The notes beneath the pieces are model-generated. The model did no database searches, was not told where the DNA came from, and was given only the letters and a program-made list of their open reading frames with translations. Shown in pieces: positions 18,755 through 48,200 of a stretch of DNA of 64,000 nt; the first letter of the stretch is position 1, and each line of letters begins with the position of its first letter. Source of the DNA: Acidimicrobiales bacterium (GTDB lineage: Bacteria; Actinomycetota; Acidimicrobiia; Acidimicrobiales; SHLQ01); contig JAHDCX010000002.1 of NCBI GenBank assembly GCA_020629635.1, forward strand, positions 25,591 through 89,590, read 5' to 3'. Both the position numbers and the translations under genes were made by a program.

Positions 18755-20092
18755 ATGCGCGACGCACCGCGTCCCTTCGACATCCGACCGACCGTGGCGG
18801 TGGTGGTGTTTCTCCTTGCGCTGACGGCTGGCCTGATTGTCACCAACGGCCGTTCGTCGGCGCGATCGGTCGTGACCGAAGCTCGTCTTGTCGCCGACGA
18901 AATCACCCCGCCGTCTTCCGGCGCGCCTCGGACCGTTGGCGAGCCCGGTGTCCCCTCAGCGATCGCGTCCGCGATCGACGACGAGGATCGAGTCGCGCTG
19001 GAGCAGGAGATCGTCGAGGCATCGTCGACGACGCGGCCGTCAGAGACTGCGGACGCCACCGTCACGCCCACGGCGACGTCATCCTCGATTGCGTCGCCCG
19101 CGACGACCACGACCTCGCCCGCCGTCGCTGGCGTGGGTGGGGGAGGCGCAGGCGAAACGACGTCGCCGACAACGCGCCCTCAGCCAGCGACCGCATCACC
19201 GCCGACTAGCTCAACAACGAGCGCTGCCCCGACGAGCATGGCCCCGACGACCACCGCCCCGGCGACCACTTCTACCCCGGCGCAGTCGGCAGTCGCCGGC
19301 GCTCGGTGGACGGTTGCGGACGTCATACGCGGGACGATCTCGGCGGGAGACGGCTCCAACCCGAACGAAGAAGCACCGATGGGGCGTCACGACGCACCGC
19401 TGTTCCTGCCGCAGACCTGGAACTGGGCGCAGGGTCCGTCCCGCAACGCCGCGTGGGGTCAGCTCGGCACCGGATCGTCGCGTTTCGCCGAGTGGCGATG
19501 CGCGGTCATCCCCGAGAACGGACACACGCCCCCCGTGCCGTTCCGCATCAACGTGCGCAGTGGCGCCTACTACCAGTTCGTCGACGGCGACTGGCAGAAG
19601 GCGTTCGACGTCGACCTGACCAGCACCAACAACGGGGGATATCTCGGACAGGCCGGGCGGGTGAACCAGGACCCGTTCTCGTCCGGCGGACACGGACGCA
19701 TCGAGTGGCGACGAGAAGCCGATGGCAGCTTCTCCGCCCCGTGGAATGCGTCGGCGTTGATGATGCACTTCTGGGCCGGCAAGCGGGAGGCCCCGGCGTC
19801 TGGCCAAACCGCGGAGTTCCTCACCGCCGAGGTGCGACTCCAGCAGCCAGATGGCCAAACGGTCGATCTCTCGGGGGTGAAGGTCCTGTTCCAGTGCGGA
19901 GTTGACTACTACAACACCACGGGAGGGCAGGGGACGAAGGTCCCGGGACCGGGCATCGGGACCTACCAGCGGGCGACCACATCGTGGAAGCCGACCCTCT
20001 GGGTGACCTTGCCCCGTGACTGGCCGGCCGACACGGTCACCGACTTTCGCCGTTGGCTCGAAGCGAACCTTCCGCCCGGAGTGACGCCGTGA
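18755..20092 (+). CDS. Secreted or anchored protein with S/T/P/A-rich linker and C-terminal domain of unknown function
   Basis: N-terminal TM/signal VAVVVFLLALTAGLIV. About 150 aa of low complexity, then a roughly 250-aa Trp/Gly-rich domain with no motif I recognise. Confidence 0.6.
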   Translation: MRDAPRPFDIRPTVAVVVFLLALTAGLIVTNGRSSARSVVTEARLVADEITPPSSGAPRTVGEPGVPSAIASAIDDEDRVALEQEIVEASSTTRPSETADATVTPTATSSSIASPATTTTSPAVAGVGGGGAGETTSPTTRPQPATASPPTSSTTSAAPTSMAPTTTAPATTSTPAQSAVAGARWTVADVIRGTISAGDGSNPNEEAPMGRHDAPLFLPQTWNWAQGPSRNAAWGQLGTGSSRFAEWRCAVIPENGHTPPVPFRINVRSGAYYQFVDGDWQKAFDVDLTSTNNGGYLGQAGRVNQDPFSSGGHGRIEWRREADGSFSAPWNASALMMHFWAGKREAPASGQTAEFLTAEVRLQQPDGQTVDLSGVKVLFQCGVDYYNTTGGQGTKVPGPGIGTYQRATTSWKPTLWVTLPRDWPADTVTDFRRWLEANLPPGVTP

Positions 20093-23769: not shown

Positions 23770-24474
23770 GTGGGGCGACAACGATCAACCGGACTTCGAG
23801 CCACGCGCGTGACCATCGGAGCGGTCAGCACCGCGAGCTTCGTCGGTGTTGTCGCGTCGCTCGGTCCGCTTGCCGCGGCCGAGGACGTCACGTCGGCCGC
23901 GCTCGAACCCGCCCGTCTCCTCGGCGCTCCGGCCGCGCTCGCCTCCACGGAGGGCCTCCCGTCGGGCAGCACCTCCTCGACCATCGTGACGGCTCCCGTC
24001 GATACCGTGGGAATCACCACGTCGTCGACGCTGCTCCCGAGCGTCTTGGAGGCGCTCGTCGATCAGTCGACGAGCACCGAGGTCACCGTCGAAGAGTCTT
24101 CGAGCACCACGGCTCCCGCAACGACCCAGGCGGCGGCCACTGCCTCGACGACCCGAGCAACGACCGCGCCGACGACCGCCGCGCCGCGCGCGTCGACCCC
24201 AACATCGGCCGCGCCGACCACAGCCGCACCCAGCACCGCCGCCCCGACAACGGCCGCGCCGGCCACCACTGCGGCGCCGACCACGGCTGCCCCGACAACG
24301 GCCGCCCCGACGACCGCCGCGCCGGCCACGACCGCAGCGCCGACGACGGCCGCACCGACCACGGCTGCACCGACGACGGCTGCCCCCACCACGGTCGCTC
24401 CCACGACGACCGTGGCGACGACCACCACCGCCCCATCCACCACGCTGCCTCCGCTCACCGGCGGAAGCATGTGA
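23770..24474 (+). CDS. Secreted Thr/Pro/Ala-rich repeat protein
   Basis: GTG at 23770 after aagggacgac. Signal-like VTIGAVSTASFVGVVASLGPLAAA. About 12 APTTA-type pentapeptide repeats. Ends LPPLTGGSM. Confidence 0.55.
   Translation: MGRQRSTGLRATRVTIGAVSTASFVGVVASLGPLAAAEDVTSAALEPARLLGAPAALASTEGLPSGSTSSTIVTAPVDTVGITTSSTLLPSVLEALVDQSTSTEVTVEESSSTTAPATTQAAATASTTRATTAPTTAAPRASTPTSAAPTTAAPSTAAPTTAAPATTAAPTTAAPTTAAPTTAAPATTAAPTTAAPTTAAPTTAAPTTVAPTTTVATTTTAPSTTLPPLTGGSM
24205..24400 (+). repeat. Tandem 15-nt (pentapeptide A-P-T-T-A) coding repeat
   Basis: AAPTTAAPSTAAPTTAAPATTAAPTTAAPTTAAPTTAAPATTAAPTTAAPTTAAPTTAAPTTVAPTT. Repeat units differ at synonymous positions. Confidence 0.85.
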
Positions 24475-28331: not shown

Positions 28332-28922
28332 ATGGTTGTCGCGGTGTTTGCCGCGAGTGTTGCTCGGCTGCTCGTTGGCGGCTTCGGCTGGACCGACCTG
28401 TTGGTCGTCGCCCTGACGGTATTGCTCGTCGGTTTCGTTGAGTGGGTGCTGCACCTCTTCTTGTTGCATGCCCCCGAGGATTCGTTTCGGATGCGGCGGC
28501 TCGGGACCGGTGTCGGTCATCGTCAACATCATCTGGATCCGCATGACGTGGGCTGGATCATGCTGTCCGGCGTCGATGCGGCGGTGTTCGTCGTCCTCAT
28601 CGCAGGGTGGACGGCGCTGTGGTCGCTCCCGCTGCTCTGGCTGGTCGGTGGACCGCTGATGGCGCCATTTCTGACGGCGCTTCTCGCTGCCTACGTGTCG
28701 CTGGCCCACTACGAGTGGGTGCATCTGTTGGTGCACACTCGTTACCGGCCCAAGACACGCTTCTACAAGCGGCTCGCGACCAACCACCGCCTGCACCACT
28801 ATCGCAACGAGCGCTACTGGCTTGGAGTGACGTCGAATCTCGGCGACCGAGCTCTGCAGAGTTATCCGGCGACCAAGACGGACGTCCCGCTCTCGGCGAC
28901 GGCGCGTACCCTGTCGGGGTGA
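28332..28922 (+). CDS. Fatty-acid hydroxylase/sterol desaturase-superfamily membrane protein
   Basis: His boxes HRQHH, HLLVH, HRLHHY with 3-4 TM segments. Start uncertain (28110-28332). GTGA overlap with glnS. Confidence 0.65.
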   Translation: MVVAVFAASVARLLVGGFGWTDLLVVALTVLLVGFVEWVLHLFLLHAPEDSFRMRRLGTGVGHRQHHLDPHDVGWIMLSGVDAAVFVVLIAGWTALWSLPLLWLVGGPLMAPFLTALLAAYVSLAHYEWVHLLVHTRYRPKTRFYKRLATNHRLHHYRNERYWLGVTSNLGDRALQSYPATKTDVPLSATARTLSG

Positions 28923-30607
28923 GTTCGGAGCACACCGACGAAGCCGCCGGTTCGGTCGACTTCATCCGCGAGAAGATCAACGCCGACAATGCGACCGGCA
29001 AGTTCGGGGGCCGCGTCCAGACGCGGTTTCCGCCCGAGCCCAACGGCTACCTCCACATCGGGCACGCGAAGTCGATCTGTCTGAACTTCGGGATCGCCGC
29101 CGACTACGACGGGGTCTGCAAGCTCCGGTTCGACGACACCAACCCCGAGGCCGAAGACCAGGACTTCGTCGACGGCATCATCGAGGACGTCGCCTGGCTC
29201 GGGTTCGCTCCCGACGAAGTCGTCTATGCCTCGGACTACTTCGACCAGCTCTATGCGTGGGCCGAGTCGTTGATCGAACGCGGTCTCGCCTACGTCGACG
29301 ATCAGGACGCAGAAACGATCTCTGCCAACCGAGGCGGCTTCACCACACCCGGCGTCGACTCACCCTGGCGAGACCGGACGCCCGAAGAGAACCTTGCGTT
29401 GTTCCGTGGAATGCGTGACGGCGAATTCGCTGACGGCGAAAAGGTGTTGCGCGCCAAGATCGACATGAACCACGAGAACATGCAGATGCGTGATCCCGTG
29501 CTCTACCGGATCCGGCGAGCGCACCACCACCGCACCGGCGATCAGTGGATCATCTACCCGACCTACGACTGGGCGCACGGTCAGTCGGACGCAATCGAAG
29601 CGGTCACCCATTCGATCTGCACGCTCGAATTCGACACCCACCGCCCGCTGTATGACTGGTGTCTCGAACATCTCGATCTCCCCCACGAGACCCCCGAGCA
29701 GACCGAGTTCGCCCGGCTCAACCTCACCCATACGGTCACGTCAAAGCGCAAGCTCAAGCAGTTGGTCGACGACGGGGTGATGTCGGGGTGGGACGACGCA
29801 CTCATGCCGACCCTTCGGGGCGTTCGCCGACGCGGCTATCCGGCCGCAGCGATCCGGGCATTCATGGACCACATCGGGGTCGCCAAGACCAACTCGACGC
29901 ACGACATCGAGCTGCTGGAGTCGTTCATCCGGACCGAGCTCAACGCGACGGCGCTTCGCCGGATGGCGGTGCTTCGGCCGCTCAAGCTGATCATCACGAA
30001 CTGGCCCGATGGCGAGGTCGACCTCCGCGAGGCGATCAACAACCCCGAGGACGACTCGGCGGGCGTGCGCCAGGTGCCCTTCGGTGGTGCGCTCTGGATC
30101 GAAGAGGACGACTTCCGGCTCGACCCGCCGCCCAAGTACTACCGGCTGACGCCGGGCCGTGAGGTCCGACTGCGCGCTGGGTACTTCGTCACGGCAACCG
30201 ACGCGGCGACCGACGCCGACGGCAACGTCACCGAGGTGTACTGCACCTACGATCCGGCGACGGCCGGCGGGCAGGCGCCGGACGGCCGCAAGGTGAAGTC
30301 GACGATCCATTGGGTGTCGGCCGCGCATGCGATCGACGCGACGGTCAACCTGTACAACCGGCTCTTCACCGACCCGCACCCGGGTTCTGGGGGGTCAGAC
30401 CCCTTCGACAGCCTGAATCCCGAGGCCCGTGAGGCGGTTGCGGCCAAGCTCGAGCCGGCACTCGGCGACGTGGCTCCCGGCCAGGTCGTCCAGTTCGAAC
30501 GCCTCGGCTATTTCGCCGCGGACCTCGACGACGCACGGGTGTTCCATCGCACGGTCGGCCTGCGCGACGAATGGGCCAACATCCAGAAACGCCGCCAAAA
30601 CTCCTAA
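28919..30607 (+). CDS. glnS: Glutaminyl-tRNA synthetase
   Basis: TRFPPEPNGYLHIGHAKSICLNFGIA...CKLRFDDTNPEAED is near-identical in pattern to E. coli GlnRS. VTSKRKL (KMSKS-like) and C-terminal anticodon-binding barrels. Confidence 0.95.
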   Translation: MSSEHTDEAAGSVDFIREKINADNATGKFGGRVQTRFPPEPNGYLHIGHAKSICLNFGIAADYDGVCKLRFDDTNPEAEDQDFVDGIIEDVAWLGFAPDEVVYASDYFDQLYAWAESLIERGLAYVDDQDAETISANRGGFTTPGVDSPWRDRTPEENLALFRGMRDGEFADGEKVLRAKIDMNHENMQMRDPVLYRIRRAHHHRTGDQWIIYPTYDWAHGQSDAIEAVTHSICTLEFDTHRPLYDWCLEHLDLPHETPEQTEFARLNLTHTVTSKRKLKQLVDDGVMSGWDDALMPTLRGVRRRGYPAAAIRAFMDHIGVAKTNSTHDIELLESFIRTELNATALRRMAVLRPLKLIITNWPDGEVDLREAINNPEDDSAGVRQVPFGGALWIEEDDFRLDPPPKYYRLTPGREVRLRAGYFVTATDAATDADGNVTEVYCTYDPATAGGQAPDGRKVKSTIHWVSAAHAIDATVNLYNRLFTDPHPGSGGSDPFDSLNPEAREAVAAKLEPALGDVAPGQVVQFERLGYFAADLDDARVFHRTVGLRDEWANIQKRRQNS

Positions 30608-30640
30608 CGGTCACTTCGGGGTCAGACACCAACGTGACCG
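30608..30640. repeat. 33-nt nested palindromic element, copy A
   Basis: cggtcac-ttc-ggggtc-a-gacacc-aac-gtgaccg, immediately after the glnS stop and between convergent genes. It extends into gtgaccgggggcagtggcttag (30634-30655). Confidence 0.85.
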
Positions 30641-30651
30641 GGGGCAGTGGC

Positions 30652-31455
30652 TTAGCGCCTCTGCGGGTGACGAATGGAGATCGCAGAGGCAGCGAATGCC
30701 GCGAGCGCGACCGCAATGGCGGCGTATGCGGCAGTACTCATGCTTTCGTCGGAATCGATGCCAGCCATCAGTGCACCGGGCAGGAGCTCCAGCGCGAACC
30801 ATGCACCTGCACCGATGAGTGGTCGAGGATCGAGACGAACGAGGGTCAGGCCGAGAGCGAGCAACCCGCATTGCAGCACGAATCCACCCAGAAACCCATC
30901 GCCGAGATCGGCGAGCGGCCCGAAGGACAGCGCCAGGATGACGATGGCGACCATGGTTGGTGATCCGGCGGGGCGTCCGTCACCCCATCGGCGGCTCAAC
31001 CCGCCAAGGCCGGCGAGCAACGAAACCGGGGCGGCCAAGAACGGAATGGCGAAGAAGCCAACCGAGAGCGCTGCCCCGAGCTGGAGTAGAGCGACCCCAG
31101 CGATCGACCTCGAAGACGTTGATCGAATCAGGAGAATGACTGAAAGGGCTGAAAGGAGAGGCTCGAGGGCGTACCGTCCGCCCCAATCCCAAGACCCGTA
31201 GCTCCACACATAGGTCGTGTGGGTCGTGAGCATCAGTAGCAGTCCGAGCATGGCGCCCTGAATCCACGTGCGCTGAACCGTGTCACCTGATTCGATTCGG
31301 GTGCGGGTGCGAAGTCCAACGTTGAACAGGCTGAGAGATTGCCTTGCGGACCAGCGATTGTCGGTGAGGGCGTTGGCCGTGTCGACGAGTTCGGCGCCGT
31401 GCTCTTGGCGATACTCGGCAGGGAACGCACGCATGACGAGGCGGTAGCTGCTCAT
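30652..31455 (-). CDS. PadR-associated polytopic membrane protein, paralog 1
   Basis: N-terminus MSSYRLVMRAFPAEYRQEHGAELVD (permease-prefix type) followed by about 6 TM. ATGA overlap with paralog 2. Confidence 0.7.
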   Translation of the reverse strand: MSSYRLVMRAFPAEYRQEHGAELVDTANALTDNRWSARQSLSLFNVGLRTRTRIESGDTVQRTWIQGAMLGLLLMLTTHTTYVWSYGSWDWGGRYALEPLLSALSVILLIRSTSSRSIAGVALLQLGAALSVGFFAIPFLAAPVSLLAGLGGLSRRWGDGRPAGSPTMVAIVILALSFGPLADLGDGFLGGFVLQCGLLALGLTLVRLDPRPLIGAGAWFALELLPGALMAGIDSDESMSTAAYAAIAVALAAFAASAISIRHPQRR

Positions 31456-31456
31456 G
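31349..31456. repeat. 5'-end repeat of paralog 1 (108 nt, 104/108 identical to 32203-32310)
   Basis: The last 67 nt (31390-31456) are identical to 32244-32310. Confidence 0.85.
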
Positions 31457-32309
31457 TTGTCGAAAGGTCGCGGCCGAGCCGGGTGATGCGTTTCAGCGAG
31501 CGATGTGCGAAGACGAGTAGGAGAATGCCGAAGGTTACGAGTCCGGTCGAGATCGCAATTCCAGCAAAGTTGGTGTTCGTGATGGCGGTCGCCAGCGATG
31601 GCCCTCCGACCGATACGACGAACCAGTAACCACTAGCGACGAGCGGGCGAGGATCCCACGGGCTGACCAGAATGCCGATCGAGGTGGTCGCCACCAGACC
31701 GATGCCCGTGATGGCGAACGGAATCTGGATCACTACAGCAAGCATGAGAATGAGACTGACACCAACCACGAGTACGCCCGTCGAAACGACCCGTGCACCG
31801 GTCCCATGTCGATTGAGGAAGAAGAGCAAGATCGAATAGCCCGCAAGGATGAAGAGCAGCGACGCCAGGGTCGTCGAACCAACGCTTGCCACGTGAGGCC
31901 CGAGTTCGAGGGCGGCTATGAGCGCGACGGCATGCCGGCTTGTGGTCCTGGAGAGAACAACGCAGGCGACTACCGCAGCAGCGAGATGCCAAGACAAAAT
32001 GCTGGACGTCTCGATCATCTCGATATCGCCCCGAGCAGCGTGCCCCGACAGCCACATCGTCAGGTCAACTGCCCGTGTGCTGGACATCAGCAAGATGGCG
32101 ATGAGTAGGCCCTCGCTCCACACGCGACGAGGGTCCGAACCGATCGCTGATCGACTTCTCGTCTGGATGCCGAGTGTCAACAGGCCGAGTGATTGACGAA
32201 CCGACCAGCGATTGTCGGTGAGAGAGTTCGCCGTGTCGACGATTTCGGCGCCGTGCTCTTGGCGATACTCGGCAGGGAACGCACGCATGACGAGGCGGTA
32301 GCTGCTCAT
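31452..32309 (-). CDS. PadR-associated polytopic membrane protein, paralog 2
   Basis: Same N-terminal 50 aa as paralog 1 with a divergent TM body. ATGA overlap with the PadR stop. Confidence 0.7.
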   Translation of the reverse strand: MSSYRLVMRAFPAEYRQEHGAEIVDTANSLTDNRWSVRQSLGLLTLGIQTRSRSAIGSDPRRVWSEGLLIAILLMSSTRAVDLTMWLSGHAARGDIEMIETSSILSWHLAAAVVACVVLSRTTSRHAVALIAALELGPHVASVGSTTLASLLFILAGYSILLFFLNRHGTGARVVSTGVLVVGVSLILMLAVVIQIPFAITGIGLVATTSIGILVSPWDPRPLVASGYWFVVSVGGPSLATAITNTNFAGIAISTGLVTFGILLLVFAHRSLKRITRLGRDLSTT

Positions 32310-32310
32310 G
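32203..32310. repeat. 5'-end repeat of paralog 2
   Basis: See 31349-31456. Spacing of 854 bp equals one gene length, as expected for a tandem duplication. Confidence 0.85.
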
Positions 32311-32641
32311 ACGTTGCTCCTGTGCTTCCAAGATTGGGCAGTCGACCGATGACTCGTTCGCTCGCCTCGACTACAGATCGCATGCGCTGGGCTTCGAGGC
32401 CGGTCTCGTGTCGCCCATATTCGGTGATGCGGTAGTACCGGCGGCGCCGGCCATTCACGGTCTCCTCCCGGTCGACCTCGAGCAGTCCGTCGTCGACAAG
32501 GCGGTCCAATGCGCCATAGAGCGTTCCGGCTGTGAGTCGTACGCGTCCCGAGGAGAGCAGATCGGCCTTCTTGATGATTCCGTATCCGTGCAGCGGCTCC
32601 GCGTGCAGGGCGAGCAGGATGAAGTACGTCGGCTCTCGCAT
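32306..32641 (-). CDS. PadR-family transcriptional regulator
   Basis: MREPTYFILLALHAEPLHGYGIIK...TAGTLYGALDRLVDDGLL...RRRYYRITEYG. An alternative GTG start lies at 32665. Confidence 0.85.
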   Translation of the reverse strand: MREPTYFILLALHAEPLHGYGIIKKADLLSSGRVRLTAGTLYGALDRLVDDGLLEVDREETVNGRRRRYYRITEYGRHETGLEAQRMRSVVEASERVIGRLPNLGSTGATS

Positions 32642-32645
32642 ACCA

Positions 32646-32674
32646 CCGATGATACATCGGGTCACGATATATCG
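32646..32674. promoter_or_regulatory. AT-richer palindromes upstream of the PadR gene (candidate operator/promoter)
   Basis: ccgatg-ata-catcgg (32646-32660) and cgatatatcg (32665-32674), in the PadR/photolyase-like divergent region. Confidence 0.3.
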
Positions 32675-32700
32675 GTAGTCGCGCCGTCCATGTCGAACGC

Positions 32701-32722
32701 GTGACCGGAGGCTGTGGCTTAG
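32701..32722. repeat. Partial third copy of the extension of element A
   Basis: gtgaccggaggctgtggcttag versus gtgaccgggggcagtggcttag at 30634-30655 (20 of 22 identical). Confidence 0.7.
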
Positions 32723-34023
32723 GTCTCAACCAGCCGCTGTCAGGTCCGCTGTGGAACGGGACGTCGTCGTACGGTTCTGATGTGTCAGCTCTGCCGCTTC
32801 CCGAACCGGGCGTCGACGCCGCCGTCGAATGGGTCGGACGCCACCTCGACGACCTCTGTTCGGACGCGCCGCGGGCCTCGACGAGATTCCGGGGCGGTCA
32901 GACGGCCGCTGATGCGGCGCTCGCGTCATTCGATGTTGGGGGCTACGCCGGTCGCCGAAACGAGGTGCTTCCCGTTGCGCGCCGCGGAGCGTCCGGCTTG
33001 TCACCGTGGATCCGTCACGGTCTCCTCACACTGCCCGACGTGTGGGCGCATGTGGCGGGAGGACCGTCTCGAGATGTCGCCAAGTTTCGCGACGAGCTGC
33101 TCTGGCAGGAGTACGCCCGTCACGTGTACGCCCGAGTCGGGCGCCGATCGTCCGTCGGGCTCCGCCACGAACACGCCGGAAACCCACGACCGGCGACCCG
33201 CGCCCACGACCTTTCCGCAGAACCCGCGATGCGCTGCGTCGCCGCCGTTGCAGACGAGCTGGAGGCCGACGGATGGCTCGTCAATCAGACGCGAATGTGG
33301 ATGGCCAGCCACTGGACGGTCCGCAACGGCTGGCGCTGGCAGGACGGCGAGGACCTGTTCTTCCGGCATCTGCTCGACGGCAGCCGCGCGGCCAACCGAC
33401 TGGGCTGGCAGTGGACGACGGGAGTCGGATCGTCCAAGCCCTACGGGTTCAGTCGATGGCAGGTCGAGAAGCGGGCCCCGCAACTCTGCCGCGACTGCGA
33501 GCTGGCCGCCCGTTGCCCGATCGAAGGGTGGCCCGACGACCCAACCACGACTCCGGCCGAGGTTCCCGTCGACCTGGGCCGGGCGACGGCAGCACCCGCA
33601 ATGGCGGGTCCGGCGGCGGTCGAACGAACGGGTGGCGACCCTGACGCCGTCTGGCTGACCGCCGAATCGCTCGGCGATGCCGACCCAGCCCTCGCCGCCC
33701 ATCCCGAGGCGGACGTGCACTTCGTGTTCGACGAACCGCTGCTCGCCAGGTTGCAGCTTTCGTCAAAGCGGTTGATCTTCCTCACCGAAACCCTGGCCGA
33801 ACTCGGGACCCACCGAACGGTGAATCTGCACCGCGGTCGGCCGGCCGATCTGCTGTCGGGGGTCGCTCTGGCGGTGACCCACGCTCCCGTACCCGGGTTC
33901 GCCACACGTGCACGCCGTCTGAACGTCGTCGAGGCCCATCCGTGGCCATGGCTCGCTCGACCGTCGGGTGGGAGCGTCAGGAGCTTCTCGGCGTGGCGAA
34001 AGGGCCTACGATTGGCGCCATGA
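32701..34023 (+). CDS. Cryptochrome/photolyase-family protein with apparent permuted domain order
   Basis: FAD-binding-domain motifs lie near the N-terminus (GLSPWIRHGLL, FRDELLWQEYARH, NQTRMWMASHW, LLDGSRAANRLGWQWTTG). Cys set MRC...CRDC...RCP. The C-terminal 130 aa resemble the alpha/beta photolyase domain. Start uncertain. Confidence 0.75.
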   Translation: MTGGCGLGLNQPLSGPLWNGTSSYGSDVSALPLPEPGVDAAVEWVGRHLDDLCSDAPRASTRFRGGQTAADAALASFDVGGYAGRRNEVLPVARRGASGLSPWIRHGLLTLPDVWAHVAGGPSRDVAKFRDELLWQEYARHVYARVGRRSSVGLRHEHAGNPRPATRAHDLSAEPAMRCVAAVADELEADGWLVNQTRMWMASHWTVRNGWRWQDGEDLFFRHLLDGSRAANRLGWQWTTGVGSSKPYGFSRWQVEKRAPQLCRDCELAARCPIEGWPDDPTTTPAEVPVDLGRATAAPAMAGPAAVERTGGDPDAVWLTAESLGDADPALAAHPEADVHFVFDEPLLARLQLSSKRLIFLTETLAELGTHRTVNLHRGRPADLLSGVALAVTHAPVPGFATRARRLNVVEAHPWPWLARPSGGSVRSFSAWRKGLRLAP

Positions 34024-34511
34024 GCGCCGCCATCGATCCGAAGTTCTTCCGCCAGGTCATGGGGCAGGTCCCCACCTGCGTCACCGTCGTGACCGCGATG
34101 GTCGACGAGCAGCCCCAAGCGATGGTCATTGGGAGTTTCGTGTCCGTGTCGCTCGACCCGCCGCTCGCCGGGTTTTTCTGCACGACGACGTCGTCGACAT
34201 GGCAGGAGCTGCGCAAGGCCGACGTGCTCGGTGTCAACGTGCTCGGTGCGGATCAGATCGACGTCTCGAACGCCTGCATGCGTGCCCCTGACGAACGGCT
34301 CGACGGACTCGATTGGGAGATGGACGGTGGAGCCCCGCGGCTCGCTGGCACGACGGCATGGATTCGATTGACGCCCAATCAGGTGATCGACGCCGGAGAC
34401 CACGAGTTCGCCCTGTGCAACGTGGTGGAGATGTCGGTGCCCGACGAGCCGAACGAGCCCGTCATCTTCTACGGCGGCGCCTACCGGTCGCTCGCCGCGA
34501 TCGAAGACTGA
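34020..34511 (+). CDS. Flavin reductase (FMN-binding split-barrel)
   Basis: FRQVMGQVPTCVTVVTA...MVIGSFVSVSLDPPL...VIFYGGAY. ATGA overlap with the upstream gene. Confidence 0.85.
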   Translation: MSAAIDPKFFRQVMGQVPTCVTVVTAMVDEQPQAMVIGSFVSVSLDPPLAGFFCTTTSSTWQELRKADVLGVNVLGADQIDVSNACMRAPDERLDGLDWEMDGGAPRLAGTTAWIRLTPNQVIDAGDHEFALCNVVEMSVPDEPNEPVIFYGGAYRSLAAIED

Positions 34512-34524
34512 ACGGGCCGGGTCG

Positions 34525-35553
34525 ATGCGGGTCTTCGCCAGCGACGCGCACCGTGCCCACTTCCCGGCGGGCGAGATCTACAACGGCGAACTGGTCCGAC
34601 CATTCGAATGCCCGGAGCGTTGGGATCACATCGATGACGCCCTGACGGCGGCCGGAATGACCGAGCGCCACGACGCTGCCGCGGTCGGCGTTGATCGGCT
34701 GGCCGCCGTGCACGACCCGGCCTTCGTCGACTTCCTCACCCACGCATGGGACGAGTGGACTGCACAGGGCCACGACGGCGACATGATCCCGACGTGCTTC
34801 CCGGCTCGCCGCATGAATCAGCGCATCCCCGCCGACATCGACGGGCGCCTCGGCTACTTTGCCTTTGCCGCAGAGACGTCGATCATGTCGGGCACCTGGT
34901 CTGCCGCACTCGCGGCCGCGTCGCTTGCGAACGAGGCGGCGGTCCGCACGATCGCCGACGGCGAACCGTCGTTTGCCTTGTGCCGGCCGCCGGGACATCA
35001 CGCCTCGATCGACTTCTTCGGCGGCTATTGCTACCTGAACAATGCGGCGATCGCGGCGGAGACCATGCTGGCCGAAGGTGCCGAACGGGTCGCGGTGATC
35101 GACGTCGACTTCCATCACGGCAACGGGACCCAGGACATCTTCTGGACGCGTCAGGACGTGTTCTTCGGGTCGGTCCACGGGGATCCGGCGCACGAGTTCC
35201 CGCACTTCAGCGGGTACGCCGACGAAGCCGGCGGCGGCGACGGCGAAGGGGCGACGGTCAACCGGCCTCTTGCTCCGGGCACCGACGCCTCGACGTGGTT
35301 CGCGGCGCTCGACGACCTCATCGATCACGCCGTCGGCCATGGAGTCGACGCACTCGTCGTGTCGTTGGGCGTCGACACCTACGAAAACGACCCCATCTCG
35401 AGCTTCCGTCTCGCCAGCGCCGACTTTGCCGGGATTGGGGAGCGGCTGGCCGGTCTTGACGTACCGACGGTCTATTGCATGGAAGGCGGCTACGCGGTCG
35501 CCGAGATCGGCACCAACGTCGTGAACGTGCTCCGCGGTCACGTTGGGGTCTGA
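34525..35553 (+). CDS. Histone-deacetylase-family amidohydrolase (acetylpolyamine/acetoin-utilisation type)
   Basis: CRPPGHHA, GGYCYLNNAAIAA, VIDVDFHHGNGTQDIF, MEGGY. Confidence 0.9.
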   Translation: MRVFASDAHRAHFPAGEIYNGELVRPFECPERWDHIDDALTAAGMTERHDAAAVGVDRLAAVHDPAFVDFLTHAWDEWTAQGHDGDMIPTCFPARRMNQRIPADIDGRLGYFAFAAETSIMSGTWSAALAAASLANEAAVRTIADGEPSFALCRPPGHHASIDFFGGYCYLNNAAIAAETMLAEGAERVAVIDVDFHHGNGTQDIFWTRQDVFFGSVHGDPAHEFPHFSGYADEAGGGDGEGATVNRPLAPGTDASTWFAALDDLIDHAVGHGVDALVVSLGVDTYENDPISSFRLASADFAGIGERLAGLDVPTVYCMEGGYAVAEIGTNVVNVLRGHVGV

Positions 35554-35567
35554 CCCCGAAGTGACCG
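35535..35567. repeat. 33-nt nested palindromic element, copy B
   Basis: cggtcac-gtt-ggggtc-t-gacccc-gaa-gtgaccg. Its reverse complement matches copy A at 32 of 33 nt. It covers the last five codons and stop of the deacetylase gene and ends 2 nt before the convergent stop. Confidence 0.85.
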
Positions 35568-35568
35568 G

Positions 35569-36879
35569 TCAGCGGCGGAGATGGATGGCGTTGGCGTGGG
35601 CGGGGAAGCCTTCGTGGTTTGCCAGGGCGATCGTGGAGTCGGCGACGGCGGCGAGCGCGTCGGCGGTGAGGTGACCGATCGCCGCGGCCTTGAGGAACTG
35701 CTCCACGGTGATGCCCCCGGAGCGGTTGGCGTGCCCGCCGGTCGGGAGGGCCGCCGGGCCGCCGAGGGTGAAATTGCCGGCGGAGAACGGGGTGTGCTGG
35801 CCGAGCAGAAGTTCCCCGGCATGCTCGATCCCGTCGGCGGCGGCCCAGGGGTCAGCGACCGCAAGTTGGCAGTGCTCCGACGCAAACCAGTTGGCAACCT
35901 CGATCGCGGCGTCGAGATCGTCGGTCAGGACCACGCCACCGTTCGTGCCGAGCGCAGCGGTCGCCGCGTCTCGCCGCTCGATGGGGAGTTCTGCCGCCTG
36001 ACGGTCGAGCTCGGCATCGACAGCCTCGACGACGTCGGCCGCTGCGGTCACGAGCACGACCGTCGAGTCCGTCCCGTGTTCGGCTTCGTTGAGAAGGTCC
36101 GCGGCGAGCAGCGTGATGTTGGCGGAGTCATCGGCGACCACCAGTGATTCGGTCGGGCCCAGGACGACCGAGTCCACTCCATGGGTTCGGACCTCGAGCT
36201 GGGCGAGCGAGACCGCCGGGCTTCCGGGGCCGACGACCATGCCGTGCGCCGGGATCGACTCGGTACCGAATGCGGCGGCCGCCACCCCCGCCGGTCCGTT
36301 CACCCGAAAGACGTCGGTGAGCCCGAGCTCGTGGGCAACCGTCAGCACCGCCCCGTCGATCTCGCCCGCCCCTCCGGGGGCAGGAGGCACGATCACGCTC
36401 AGCTGGGGTACTCCCGCCACGGACGCCGGCGTCGCGATCTGGGCGAGCACCGACGGGTAACTGGCCTTGCCGCTCGGGCAGAACAGCGCAGCCGACGCGA
36501 CCGGCCCGACCTTCTCGCCGATGGTGTGGCCGGGTGCGATCTCGGCGGTCCACGATGCGCGGCGTTCGAGCAGCGCCTCGTTGAAGGCGCGGATGTTGGC
36601 GATCATGTGGCGAATGGCGGCGTGTACGTCCGAGTCGATCGTGGCCAACGCCTCGGCGAACTCTTCGTCGGAGACTCGGAGACCGCCGGGCTCGACCGTC
36701 ACCCCGTCGAATCGCGCCAGCGCCTCGCACACGGCAACGTCGCCTCGCGCTCGGACGTCGTCCACGAGTGAACGAATGTCGTCACGCAGTGAGGCTGTCA
36801 CCTCAGTCGCCGCCCCGCGACCGTGCAACCAGGCCCGGTCAGCGTCGGTCATTTCGTTCCACACCATCCTGCGAAGCAT
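35569..36879 (-). CDS. Histidinol-dehydrogenase-family oxidoreductase
   Basis: ALFCPSGKASYPS, VNGPAGVAAAAFGT, LLNEAEHGTDS, GHANRSGGITVEQF. Start at 36879, 36867 or 36852. Confidence 0.85.
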   Translation of the reverse strand: MLRRMVWNEMTDADRAWLHGRGAATEVTASLRDDIRSLVDDVRARGDVAVCEALARFDGVTVEPGGLRVSDEEFAEALATIDSDVHAAIRHMIANIRAFNEALLERRASWTAEIAPGHTIGEKVGPVASAALFCPSGKASYPSVLAQIATPASVAGVPQLSVIVPPAPGGAGEIDGAVLTVAHELGLTDVFRVNGPAGVAAAAFGTESIPAHGMVVGPGSPAVSLAQLEVRTHGVDSVVLGPTESLVVADDSANITLLAADLLNEAEHGTDSTVVLVTAAADVVEAVDAELDRQAAELPIERRDAATAALGTNGGVVLTDDLDAAIEVANWFASEHCQLAVADPWAAADGIEHAGELLLGQHTPFSAGNFTLGGPAALPTGGHANRSGGITVEQFLKAAAIGHLTADALAAVADSTIALANHEGFPAHANAIHLRR

Positions 36880-36883
36880 GGGT

Positions 36884-37675
36884 TCAGTATGGGAGGTTCG
36901 CCCCCGCGTTCGGTCGCCCGCGACCCGCAAACGAATCCATCCAGTCGTCGATGTCGCGCCACACCGGCGTCCGCGGGTCGATGATCGTGAAGTGATCGGC
37001 GTCGGCCGGATTGAGGTGAACGGCCTCGTCGTGCGCGGCGATGGCGGCAGCCACGTATTTGGCCGACATGTCCACGGGGACGTCGTCGTCGCCGCTGGCG
37101 TGGACGATGAGTTGCGGAACGGCGAGTGGGAGGAGTCGGATGGGTGAGGCGTCTGCGTAGATGTCCGGGATTTCGTCGGCCCGTCCGCCGAGGAGTACCG
37201 CCGCCGCCGACGACGACAAGGCCTCACGGTCTGCGGATTCGAGGTCGGAGACTGGCGCGAGCGCAACGACACCGTCGATCGGGCTGTGCTGTTGGCCCGC
37301 CGCCCACAACGCGAGGTGTCCGCCTGCCGAATGACCCACGGCGATCACCGTCCGGTTCCGGTCAGTCGAGAGTCCAGCCGCCCAGGCCACCGCCGCGGAG
37401 ACGTCGGCGCGCATCTGCGGCCAGACCGACGCCGTGTCGTCCGACTCGATTCGCCGGTACTCCACGTTCACCACCTCCCACCCTCGGTTGACGAGGTGAT
37501 GGCAGATGGCGGTGTTGATGTCGAGTCCATATCGTGCTCGCCAATACCCGCCGTGAAACGAGATCGCCGTGCCGATCGGTTGGGCGACGTCGGGTCGGTA
37601 GTGATCGACAAACTGCTCGGGGTCCGGGCCGTAGGGGGTGCGTTCCGGGAGGATGGGAGCGTCGCGCCGGCTCAT
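36884..37675 (-). CDS. Alpha/beta hydrolase, kynurenine/aryl-formamidase-like
   Basis: FHGGYW oxyanion motif and nucleophile elbow VGHSAGGHLALWAA. Confidence 0.75.
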   Translation of the reverse strand: MSRRDAPILPERTPYGPDPEQFVDHYRPDVAQPIGTAISFHGGYWRARYGLDINTAICHHLVNRGWEVVNVEYRRIESDDTASVWPQMRADVSAAVAWAAGLSTDRNRTVIAVGHSAGGHLALWAAGQQHSPIDGVVALAPVSDLESADREALSSSAAAVLLGGRADEIPDIYADASPIRLLPLAVPQLIVHASGDDDVPVDMSAKYVAAAIAAHDEAVHLNPADADHFTIIDPRTPVWRDIDDWMDSFAGRGRPNAGANLPY

Positions 37676-45256: not shown

Positions 45257-48200
45257 TCAGCGCTGCAAGACCTGCGCAACCGTGTTCCGGAAGCGTTCGA
45301 CATTTGCCAGCTTGATGTCCTCGTAGCCCCGCACCAGGTCGGCGGCATCGGCGATCTCGATCGCTCGATCCAGCGCGTCGGATTGATTGCCGGCGAGCGC
45401 CTCGTCGAGCGCGGCGAGGTACTCGCTGGGCAGGGCACGTTCGACCCTGCGAACCTCGGCACGCCCGAACACGTCTGCACTCGTTCCGCGCAGCTTCTTG
45501 CCTCGAGCGAGGGCGGCAACCGCTGGTGTTGCCCACGAGCCGATCGTGATCTTGCTCTCCATGCCGAGGGCTCGAAGCATCGGCGGGTGCAGCTTCCAGG
45601 CAACGGCGCCGCCTTCGCCGGCGTGGGTGTGTGCCGCCGCGGTGGCCTCGACATCGAGCATGAGGCGTGCGACCTCGTACTCGTCCTTGTATGCCGTGAG
45701 TTTGAAGAGTCCCTCGGCGACGGACTCGAGTAGCCCAGTCGACGCCGGATCGTGCGAGCGTTCCTTTGTTGCGACGTCGGCGAGGTGGGCGAGGAAGACC
45801 TTGGCCGTGTCGTCGTCGCCCCAGGCGACCAGTTCGACGGCGAGACGATCGATCCGTGCCCGGAGTGTGCCCGAGACATTCATCGCGTCGAGTTCGGCGC
45901 CGTATCGTTCGGGCGCTCCCGTCTGCGCGTCGTCATCGGTGGTCGACGTGGCGCGTTCGACGGCGGTCGGATCGTCCACCCACGCGCGACCCCAACGAAA
46001 GGCCGCGACGTTGGCGTCGACGGCCACCCCGTTGAGGCCGATGGCCGCTTCGATCTGGGCGGGGTCGATCGGGAGGGCACCAGCCTGGACCGCCATGCCG
46101 ACGACGAAGATGTTGGCGGTCGTCGCGTTGCCGAAGAGGTCGGTCGTGATCCGCTGCGCGTCGGCCCAGAACTGGTTGGGTGCGGCACGCTCGGCGATGC
46201 GTGCTTCGAGCTCGTCGGCCGACGGCATCGGGATCTCCGGGCTCGTGATCATCGATCCTGTCGGCGTCGTCGAGCTCGAGCCGACGACGATCGTGTGATC
46301 TTCGGCCGTCGAGGCCCGTCCCTTCGCCGACGCGGCGACGAGCTGATCGAACGCGAGCAGAAGATCCGCCTGTGCTTCACCGAGGCGGTTGGTGAACGAC
46401 GGTCCAGACTTCGACAACCGGATGTCGGAGACCACCGGACCGGCCTTCTGAGAGAGCCCGATCTGATCGAGGCCCCGCACGTCGAACCCGTCGAGCATCG
46501 CTGCGGTCCCAAGCACCTGGGCGACGGTGACGACGCCTGTGCCTCCGATTCCGGTGATCCGAAGTGCGAAGTCGTCGGTGTCCACGACGATCGTCGGAGA
46601 CGGCACGGGGGGTGGGGTGGAGACGGGGTCTGTCCCCGGGTCGGACGAAGAGGATGACGGCGTTGGTGCACTCTGTGCGGGGTCTGAACCCGTCGCTCCG
46701 CGGGTGCGCCGGGTGCGGGACAGGGCCCGCATGGCGAGCTTGGCCACCCTCCCCGGCTCTTCGGTCGTCACGGTCATGAATGAGGGGCAGTCGCCCTCGA
46801 GGCAGCTGTAGTCGAGATTGCAGGTGGTCTGATCGATCGTGGTCTTGCGTCCAAATTCGGTGTCGAGCGGCTGCACCGAGAGACAGTTCGAGACCTGACC
46901 GCAGTCGCCGCACCCCTCACAGATCCTGTGGTTGATGAACACGGTCTGATTGGGGGTCTCCACCAGTCCGCGCTTGCGAGCTCGACGGGCTTCGGCGGCG
47001 CACGCCTGGTCGTGGATGAGCACGGTCACTCCAGAGACCTCGGCGAGCGTCTCCTGCGCTTCGAGCAGCCGGGTTCGGTCCCACACCTCGACCTCGCGGG
47101 GCAGATCGAGAGCCTTGGTCCGGCCCGGGTCGTCCGAGGTGATGAGGACCTTGGCGGCGCCGTCGATGAGCAGCGTTCGGGCGATCTGCGCGATCCCGAG
47201 CTGGCCCTCGGGGTCCTGACCACCCGTCATGGCGACGGTCCCGTTGTAGAGCAGCTTGTAGGTGATGTTGACGTCAGCGGCGATCGCGGCGCGGATGGCG
47301 AGTTGGCCGGAGTGGAAGTAGGTGCCGTCGCCGAGGTTCTGGATGAGGTGCGGGGTTTCGACGAAGTCGCTCATCCCGATCCATTGCGTGCCCTCGTTGC
47401 CCATGCACGTGAGGCCGGCGATCTCGCCGACGCGGTCTGGGTCCATCAACAGCGTCATCGTGTGGCACCCGATGCCAGCGCCCACGAGCGACCCATCCGG
47501 CACCTCGGTGCTGCGGTTGTGCGGGCAGCCCGAGCAGAAGAACGGGGTGCGTTCGACACCGAGCGCGATGGGGATGCGCGTGCGTTCCTTGCGCTCCGGG
47601 ACCAGACGATCGCCGAGTCGTTCGGCGAGTCGGCGTCGCAGGATCGGCACGATGCCGTCTGCGTCGAGTGCACCCCAGCTCGGGAACAAGATGCCGCCGA
47701 CCTCGTCCTGCTTGCCGACGACGATCGGGCGGTCCGGCATCGAATAGAGCGCGTCCTTGAGCAGCGATTCGATGTTGGGTTGCTTCTCCTCGACGACCAG
47801 GATCTCGTCGAGACCTTTGGCGAAGCTGCGCATCGTGGCTGGGTTGAACGGCATCGGCATGCCCATCTTGAGCAGCCGAATCCCTGCGGACTCGAGCTCG
47901 GCATCGGTCCGGAGGCCGAGTCGGGACAGTGCTTCGCGAACTTCGCGGTACGTGATGCCCGATGCGATGAGTCCGATCCATCCGTCGGATGGGTCGACCG
48001 TGACGTGGTTGAGCTTGTTCTCCGCTGCGTAGGTGCGGGCCAGTTCGTAGCGCACTTCCACGATCTCCCGCTCGATGTCGACCGTGTGTGGTGTGAGCAG
48101 ATTGCCGTCTGGGACGTGGTGATACGGAATGCCGTCGAGGAGCGGAATCACGGGCCGCACCCGGTCGGGCGAAAGGTCGACGTTGGCGGTCGCATCGGCG

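Follow-up and report, generated by a model that had tools for sequence, protein, structure and literature searches.

Two near-identical 33-nt palindromes, copy A (30608-30640) and copy B (35535-35567), bracket a 4.9-kb block of genes in a 64,000-nucleotide stretch of DNA from an Acidimicrobiales bacterium (GenBank assembly GCA_020629635.1, contig JAHDCX010000002.1, positions 25,591 to 89,590 of the forward strand). The whole stretch is called the window in the following, and coordinates without other designation refer to it. Both copies are likely to be independent members of a lineage-specific, dispersed family of hairpins in Acidimicrobiales/Ilumatobacteraceae-type bacteria, located at the 3' ends of transcription units. 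That they belong to such a dispersed family and do not form the ends of a cassette is almost certain. A preceding sequence-only reading of this DNA had offered elements resembling repetitive extragenic palindromes (REP) or miniature inverted-repeat transposable elements (MITE), bidirectional terminators, and recombination scars at cassette boundaries as candidate explanations.

The palindrome pair in the window

Copy B is the reverse complement of copy A (cggtcacttcggggtcagacaccaacgtgaccg) with one change, as described by the sequence-only reading. Written in the orientation of the family consensus, which lies on the minus strand for copy A and on the plus strand for copy B, copy A reads CGGTCAC GTT GGTGTC T GACCCC GAA GTGACCG. 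The nested structure proposed for the palindromes was found, too. The outer arms comprise 7 bp in both copies (CGGTCAC/GTGACCG), and the inner arms of 6 bp are perfect in copy B (GGGGTC/GACCCC) and pair at five of six positions in copy A (GGGGTC/GACACC). The 3-nt linkers of both copies pair only partially. Stable hairpins were predicted from the RNA fold energies (-23.6 to -30.2 kcal/mol), with values of about -23.6 kcal/mol for copy A on either strand, and of -30.2 (plus strand) and -25.7 kcal/mol (minus strand) for copy B; the z values of the two hairpins are about -2.1 to -2.6.

Among the inverted repeats listed for the window the two copies clearly stand out (36 nt with 94% complementarity, compared to 70-81% for the others), and none of 100 dinucleotide shuffles of the window contained two matches. 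A chance origin of the pair, as well as of the 22-mer match described below, was rejected. In a covariance-model scan of the full 64 kb copy A scored 62.4 bits and copy B 60.5 bits, and no other or weaker copy exceeded 15 bits.

Members of the family in other genomes

We scanned 185,579 species-representative genomes with the pattern GGTCAC-N3-GGNGTC-N-GACNCC-N3-GTGACC. It matched 13 sites on nine contigs of the metagenome-assembled genome (MAG) Acidimicrobiales MAG-156 (GCA_020629375.1), and furthermore one site each in an Ilumatobacteraceae MAG and in Prevotella, the latter being a probable chance match. The source organism of the window is a sister of MAG-156 (the deacetylase encoded in the block is 82% identical, the photolyase-like protein 75%), and the same sequencing runs contain both. 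Hardly any variation is seen among the aligned copies; the consensus is cGGTCAC-GTT-GG(T/G)GTC-T-GACCCC-GAA-GTGACCg. The 31-nt core of copy A is identical to the MAG-156 copies L003, L015 and L017, and the core of copy B to the MAG-156 copy L016; the Ilumatobacteraceae copy carries the linkers GCC/GGC instead of GTT/GAA. Because the covariance model separates the members (55-66 bits) from the background in the window and in the MAG-156 loci with a copy (at most 17 bits), the family is sharply defined, and the window contains exactly two copies. Copies at unrelated loci in MAG-156, in the Ilumatobacteraceae MAG and in metagenomes correspond to the occurrence at many unrelated convergent junctions which the sequence-only reading itself had named as speaking against a special role of the pair as block boundary.

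No homologues of the block genes were found at the other loci carrying the element, and there was no recurrent neighbour: 97 sampled open reading frames (ORFs) located within 3 kb of a copy matched 148 different Pfam families, and none of these ORFs encodes a transposase. A tblastn search of 509 kb of sequence with Y1 transposase queries, which is a weak test, gave no match. Rfam contains no matching family, which ruled out a known RNA family. A plasmid or phage origin was ruled out as well, as blastn against 72,556 plasmids and 50,697 phages remained without a match.

Placement at gene ends and rewritten C-termini

The 4.9-kb block consists of two divergent transcription units. The unit on the minus strand contains the genes of a PadR-family regulator and of two predicted membrane proteins (mem2 and mem1), the unit on the plus strand those of a photolyase-like protein, a flavin reductase-like protein and a histone-deacetylase-family (AcuC-like) deacetylase. 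Since the 3' end of each unit meets a convergent neighbour, a copy is located at each end of the block. Copy A fills the gap between mem1 (30652-31455, minus strand) and the gene of a class I Glu/Gln-type aminoacyl-tRNA synthetase (aaRS; 28607-30607, plus strand; Pfam tRNA-synt_1c, E = 3.9e-100; coordinates of the longest ORF, the true start being probably located further downstream). Its first base lies 1 nt past the TAA of the aaRS gene, and 11 nt separate its end from the TAA of mem1. Copy B contains the G-H-V-G-V codons and the TGA stop of the deacetylase gene (34525-35553, plus strand) and ends 1 nt before the stop of a histidinol-dehydrogenase-family (HisD-like) gene on the minus strand (35569-37272, longest ORF). 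The earlier statements on this arrangement, i.e. the siting of both copies at convergent gene ends and the contribution of the last five codons plus stop of the deacetylase gene by copy B, were therefore correct. Only 2 of about nine convergent junctions in the window carry the element; consequently, it is not the general terminator of the source genome.

A similar placement was observed in MAG-156. About 10 of its 13 copies, as well as both window copies, either contain a stop codon or lie within about 25 nt of one, and the distance from the last coding base to the 29-nt core is mostly between -25 and about +37 nt. Several copies are located between convergent genes, 1-15 nt away from the gene on either side. 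The element carries a TGA in its loop (on the consensus strand) and another one in the GTGACC arm (on both strands). The window deacetylase gene and the oxidase gene at L016 end at the loop TGA, the genes at L009 and at a decayed copy of L017 at the arm TGA. Most copies are intergenic at 3' ends. In the four just named (window copy B, L016, L009 and the decayed copy of L017), the element extends into the end of the coding sequence and provides the stop codon.

The overlap is visible in the protein sequences. Homologues of the deacetylase end with ...NVLTGHLEG*, the equally long window protein with ...NVLRGHVGV*, its conserved Gly-His being encoded by GGT-CAC in the left arm of copy B. Homologues of the arabinonolactone oxidase end with ...RVLGPVG(G)*, the MAG-156 protein at L016 with ...RVLGHVGV*. 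The element overlaps stop codons, and in two or more unrelated enzymes it has rewritten the C-terminal tail to GHVGV. Downstream of copy B and of the L016 copy, no displaced native tail was seen. The L016 oxidase gave no second presence/absence comparison, as the database contains no orthologue from the source organism (the best non-self match shows 66% identity).

Logan contigs carrying the deacetylase gene (L001, L002, L019, L020) stop at the downstream hairpins in both species. Those of the source organism end at 35564, inside copy B, and those of MAG-156 36 nt after the stop codon, at the end of the hairpin present at the position orthologous to copy B. Palindromes of this type break short-read assemblies and can mislead synteny or cassette calls. 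The contig ends were set aside as evidence of repetition, because palindromes alone break de Bruijn graphs.

Origin and turnover of the copies

Between the two species, non-orthologous copies are 100% identical over 31 nt, and the orthologous pair of copy A shows about 85% identity; the genes of both species differ by about 18-25% in DNA. As the orthologous copy A has diverged at about the neutral rate while non-orthologous copies remained identical, the pattern appears to be that of a family which is renewed from conserved sources while old copies decay, and not that of purifying selection acting site by site. From the gene ends described above we infer that the gene-overlapping copies are unlike simple insertions, the native last codons and the spacer having been replaced. 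Renewal probably proceeds by copying from conserved copies in a templated replacement, either through short-patch conversion or through an event mediated by microhomology, at GC-rich 3' hairpins that were already present. The surviving copies would then be limited to replacements leaving a tolerable protein tail.

The inner palindrome recurs without the outer arms. The motif GGGGTC-N-GACCCC (at most one mismatch) occurs seven times in the window, compared to 0.62 expected occurrences. One of these core-only hairpins, CGGGTCAGACCCC (2803-2815, strand not assigned), lies in the convergent gap 2783-2855; further sites are 2137-2149, 30391-30403, 46625-46637 and 46679-46691. This enrichment fits a templated replacement at existing hairpins. 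One inner motif is located within the aaRS coding sequence, and MAG-156 has an 11-nt core at a similar distance upstream of its site A, the position orthologous to copy A.

The same hairpins could point to a process without any mobility, in which stable GC-rich hairpins form in situ where convergent genes closely meet, and short-patch gene conversion homogenises them into a family (concerted evolution). Such a process is unlikely, although several observations are in line with it. Besides the core-only hairpin in another convergent gap there is one at site B of MAG-156, the position orthologous to copy B. The element-coded tails mimic the native C-termini, suggesting conversion of similar sequence, and the copies cluster regionally in MAG-156 (four on one 161-kb contig; pairs 4.4 and 10.4 kb apart). 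However, to keep 31-mers identical at non-orthologous sites, conversion would have to go on continually in both species in spite of the DNA difference of their genes. In addition, conversion tracts would be unusually short at 31-33 nt, with 6-13 nt of homology as seed, and some copies (L010, L013) are found where no hairpin is expected.

Alternatively, the family might be of the REP/REPIN type and be mobilised in trans by a single-copy REP-associated tyrosine transposase (RAYT, an IS200/IS605-type Y1 transposase) encoded elsewhere in the genome. REP hairpins of E. coli and Pseudomonas carry a conserved GTAG-type tetranucleotide beside the hairpin. In the aligned flanks of our copies no such tetranucleotide is conserved, only a stem-extending C/G. 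REP/REPIN elements of Enterobacteria and Pseudomonas are, like ours, short, imperfect and dispersed palindromes with a family-specific consensus, mostly at 3' ends or between convergent genes, and the conserved consensus together with decaying old copies would be in accordance with mobilisation by a RAYT. REPINs have been described as REP doublets exploiting RAYTs (PMC3337134, PMC3116915). Close doublets of family or superfamily copies also exist in metagenome contigs (34, 66, 122 and 193 nt start to start), where they were seen in L033, L053, L057, L058, L067 and L069 only. In contrast, the window copies are singlets 4.9 kb apart, tens and not hundreds of copies are present, and many of the copies extend over stop codons in place of native codons, unlike a cut-and-paste or peel-and-paste insertion. 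A Y1 transposase was found neither in the block nor, in the weak test mentioned above, in 509 kb. Without a GTAG head and with singlets in the window, membership in the REP/REPIN-RAYT system is not established, and we regard a mobilisation of this kind as rather improbable.

Comparison of the block with MAG-156

The orthologous locus of MAG-156 (L018) shows the order aaRS, mem, an assembly gap, PadR, photolyase-like gene, flavin reductase, deacetylase and HisD-like gene (minus strand), followed by the same downstream genes; the orthologues of the aaRS and of the HisD-like protein comprise 564 and 432 amino acids, respectively. Site A contains a decayed copy, CGGCAAC TTC GGGGTC A GACCCC AAC GTGATGG (32 bits, 5 of 33 positions changed). 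Its divergence is similar to that found when the aaRS gene and the adjoining copy A are aligned in one piece (82.5% DNA identity). At site B there is a different hairpin, GTGTAAC GAC GGGGTC T GACCC TCTCC TTACAC, which shares only the core GGGGTCTGACCC with the family. The MAG-156 deacetylase has its own ending, ...GHEGLTHLR*, before this hairpin. Because gene order is retained in MAG-156, where copy A is decayed and the family is not represented at site B, the block is older than the present copies and not delimited by them. The end of the deacetylase gene in L018 (11020-11041) reads GGA CAC GAA GGC CTG ACC CAC CTG CGA TGA; minus one C it regains the ancestral ...GHEG-TGA, so that a 1-nt insertion seems to have added five codons.

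The two halves of the block differ in their conservation. The sequence-only reading had considered an invariant block in all relatives as an argument against its own proposal. This invariance applies for the half containing the photolyase-like, flavin reductase and deacetylase genes in MAG-156, but not for the PadR/membrane half. There, mem2 shows 92.5% DNA identity to the MAG-156 sequence, and the body of mem1 (30641-31385) is absent with only its first 23 codons or so remaining (L018 7146-7300, 7940-8070). The breakpoint coincides with the edge of the decayed copy A, and a run of N lies 0.8 kb away; the loss may be genuine or have been caused by a collapse of the paralogues during assembly. 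More distant relatives lack the PadR/membrane half. They share a loose scaffold of aaRS, flavin reductase-deacetylase and HisD genes, with different genes in its two gaps (L070, L072), and in one relative the deacetylase gene has a wholly different context. Compared to these relatives the HisD-like gene is inverted in the lineage of the source organism and MAG-156. This inversion places a breakpoint at the site of copy B. The region is rearrangement-prone, and nothing ties this to the palindromes except the mem1-body breakpoint at the edge of copy A.

A second repeat is associated with copy A. The 22-mer into which it continues recurs, as the sequence-only reading had reported, with two mismatches at 32701-32722 in the divergent intergenic junction, and local alignment extends the match to 21 of 23 nt. 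The left repeat (30633-30655, plus strand) comprises the right arm of copy A and the 15-nt flank with the mem1 stop codon. The right one (32700-32722, plus strand) lies in the divergent intergenic region between PadR and the photolyase-like gene (32666-32781). The ORF of the latter is open from 32701, but homology to orthologues begins at residue 28 of the long ORF, wherefore the most likely start is the GTG at 32782 and the right repeat is intergenic. The direct repeats enclose PadR-mem2-mem1, with 2,044 bp between them.

The 15-nt flank was absent from all 71 other loci with the element and was therefore ruled out as a part of it. Likewise, the 32.7-kb junction was rejected as a third copy, as it gave no covariance-model match. 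The MAG-156 stretch orthologous to 32700-32722 is only weakly similar, with indels. The orthologous junction in MAG-156 bears a weak resemblance to the element on the minus strand (TCTCGTTGGGGTCCAACACCCG), which is suggestive only. Judged from these comparisons, the 23-mer appears to be a local duplication specific for the window and not a feature of the family. It may have arisen by a recent local duplication or conversion in which the arm of copy A took part, or it may be what an old recombination event left behind.

These data bear on the idea that the palindromes are inverted terminal repeats or recombination sites of a mobile or invertible 4.9-kb cassette, or of two cassettes joined at 32.7 kb. 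The geometry is suggestive: the copies are inverted, 4.9 kb apart and located exactly at gene ends, the 21/23-nt direct repeat flanks the PadR-mem2-mem1 module, and the MAG-156 copies include the pair spaced by 4.4 kb. The other genes between aaRS and flavin reductase/deacetylase in distant relatives, the inverted HisD-like gene and the mem1-body deletion beginning at the edge of copy A would be compatible with it as well. However, the order of the genes is unchanged in MAG-156, where copy A has decayed and site B lacks a member of the family, the 13 copies of that genome occupy unrelated loci, and the flank of the 23-mer is missing from every other copy. An empty site with a single copy was not found. 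In accordance with the earlier statement that recombinases and transposases are lacking, a Pfam domain search revealed no transposase, recombinase or integrase domain in the eight genes which make up the block and flank it. We regard a cassette as very improbable, and the reading of the palindromes as recombination scars or cassette boundaries is not supported: the locus is syntenic in MAG-156, with a decayed copy A and a different hairpin, and the other loci carrying the element contain no homologues of the block genes. The element shares with MITEs, miniature elements derived from insertion sequences (IS) and integron attC sites that these are small non-coding palindromic repeats which can mark insertion boundaries. 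Unlike MITEs, it consists of a 33-nt hairpin only, without terminal inverted repeats around an internal segment and without target-site duplication, and its flanks are unrelated. Unlike attC sites, it is accompanied by no integrase in the block, and synteny of the bracketed genes is retained in MAG-156, which has no intact copy at this locus.

Covariation and a wider superfamily

A looser pattern applied to metagenome contigs returned 48 stretches, about 40 of them with a T/A loop. The subfamilies share GTCAC-N3-GGGGTCTGACCCC-N3-GTGAC, a conservation which is partly imposed because the search pattern itself fixed the core. Their linkers are lineage-specific (AAA/TTT, ATC/GAT, TSA/TCA from soil, ACC/GGT, GCT/AGC) and their outer stems are extended, in places to near-perfect palindromes of about 50 nt. 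Such palindromes of up to about 50 nt were seen e.g. in the AAA/TTT freshwater subfamily (L033, L039, L045, L058, L067, L069; for instance ctaggcgaatGTCACAAAGGGGTCTGACCCCTTTGTGACattcgcctag), whose doublets 66-193 nt apart share one flank.

Among 54 distinct copies, the free positions show Watson-Crick pairing in 65-93% of the copies compared to about 30% in shuffles, with three to four pair types per position, and the variable positions of the 14-17-bp family stem covary. Because the free positions covary in a way that keeps the pairing, covariation supports a folded hairpin (RNA or single-stranded DNA) over a duplex protein site. A duplex DNA site for a dimeric regulator or nucleoid protein, which would match the perfect two-fold symmetry and the conserved half-sites GTCAC and GGGGTC, is extremely improbable, since half-sites do not need the pairing of linker and flank positions and the copies lie at 3' ends and inside coding ends and not at promoters, with no recurrent neighbour gene.

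Tentatively, one may go further and imagine a superfamily with a fixed core across soil, freshwater and marine high-GC uncultured bacteria, in which a dedicated trans-acting factor recognises the core and which spreads by templated replacement of gene 3' ends, changing the final codons of the host's proteins. This extension is improbable on the present data. The factor could serve in termination or 3' processing with a specificity for hairpins, or it could be an enzyme other than RAYT that mobilises the elements.

Possible function and comparison with known systems

Position, stability and symmetry point to a hairpin acting at the 3' end of transcription units, and bidirectionally at convergent junctions, in termination or as a roadblock, or as an exonuclease stop; for such a role we see about an even chance. 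Each copy would then prevent read-through or shield the 3' ends of mRNAs against exonucleases, as has been proposed for REP and TRIT elements. Two of the options offered earlier, a REP/MITE-like element and a bidirectional terminator, are broadly backed by the dispersed, conserved hairpin family at unrelated gene 3' ends. The element resembles intrinsic terminators in forming a stable GC-rich hairpin directly after genes; unlike these Rho-independent terminators, its sequence is conserved between unrelated sites and it lacks a U-tract.

TRIT, the Tuberculosis Rho-independent terminator motif (Gardner et al. 2011, RNIE paper, PMC3152330), has 147 palindromic copies, mostly bidirectional, in a narrow placement around -8 of the stop codon, and is restricted to its genus (PMC3152330). 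As TRIT, our element is a scattered palindromic motif conserved in sequence and structure and bidirectional (both strands fold here), with a narrow placement at the stop codon, frequent overlap with coding ends, restriction to one actinobacterial lineage and no obligatory U-tract. Unlike TRIT, it occurs in Acidimicrobiia and not in Mycobacterium, and 13 copies in one MAG compare to 147. TRIT appears to be the closest analogue, and the element is not a demonstrated member of it.

Several observations weigh against a family of 3'-end hairpins with this role. About 3 of the 13 MAG-156 copies (L006, L010, L013) lie away from 3' ends, and the orientation of the slightly asymmetric element is independent of the direction of the adjacent gene. 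A T-run does not follow directly on either strand of either window copy, and a terminator scan called neither of them. The decay of the orthologous copy A in MAG-156 speaks against strong site-specific selection, and 13 copies in one MAG and two in 64 kb are a low number for a REP family. The 23-nt repeat around the PadR/mem module is not explained by the hairpin family. Position and structure suggest a putative role as terminator or stabiliser, and the terminator role of TRIT is itself doubtful, as TRIT overlaps with only 2-4% of mapped M. tuberculosis 3' ends.

Further genes and neighbouring features

Within the minus-strand unit, the stop codon of mem2 (31452-32309) overlaps the start of its paralogue mem1 (ATGA), which gave no Pfam match. 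The two proteins show 39% identity overall, with nearly identical first 44 residues or so; the DNA of these roughly 44 codons (31325-31456, 32179-32310) is 92% identical and contains identical -35/-10-like hexamers in both stretches. This suggests gene conversion or a strong constraint on the N-terminal cytoplasmic segment (MSSYRLVMRAFPAEYRQEHGAE...). Upstream follows the PadR-family regulator gene (32306-32665, minus strand; Pfam PadR, E = 2.3e-19). The gap between this gene and the photolyase-like gene, together with the PadR start, contains AT-richer palindromes (CCGATGATACATCGG, CGATATATCG; 32640-32695), which are conserved in MAG-156 and are probably the PadR operator for the divergent promoters.

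In the plus-strand unit, the photolyase-like protein (32782-34023) shows a FAD_binding_7 domain only. It is followed by the flavin reductase-like gene (33942-34511, plus strand; Pfam Flavin_Reduct, E = 8.4e-31), for which the public gene call gives 172 amino acids. Outside the block, long imperfect repeats with a 15-nt period and 74% GC at 24116-24465 and 19223-19291 encode Pro/Thr/Ala-rich low-complexity protein.

In contig 8 of MAG-156 (L003, 969-4198), a TROVE-domain (Ro60-like) protein is encoded about 1.5 kb upstream of one copy, with a second copy 4.4 kb beyond the first, and RtcB was among the Pfam families matched by the 97 sampled ORFs. This region may be a bacterial Ro/RtcB RNA-repair locus that also encodes Y-RNA-like RNAs.

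Significance

Conserved hairpins dispersed at the ends of genes have been investigated thoroughly in Enterobacteria and Pseudomonas (REP/REPIN), and have been noted in Mycobacterium (TRIT). In a full-text literature search, no paper mentioned 'extragenic palindromic' together with Acidimicrobiia, and the core strings appeared in none. The present data show such elements in an abundant uncultured actinobacterial lineage of aquatic and soil habitats, and in the comparison of sister species an old copy is seen to decay, with young copies being perfectly conserved. Should a dedicated factor stand behind the conserved core, the family would open a way into termination and 3'-end formation in high-GC Actinomycetota, processes which are poorly understood.

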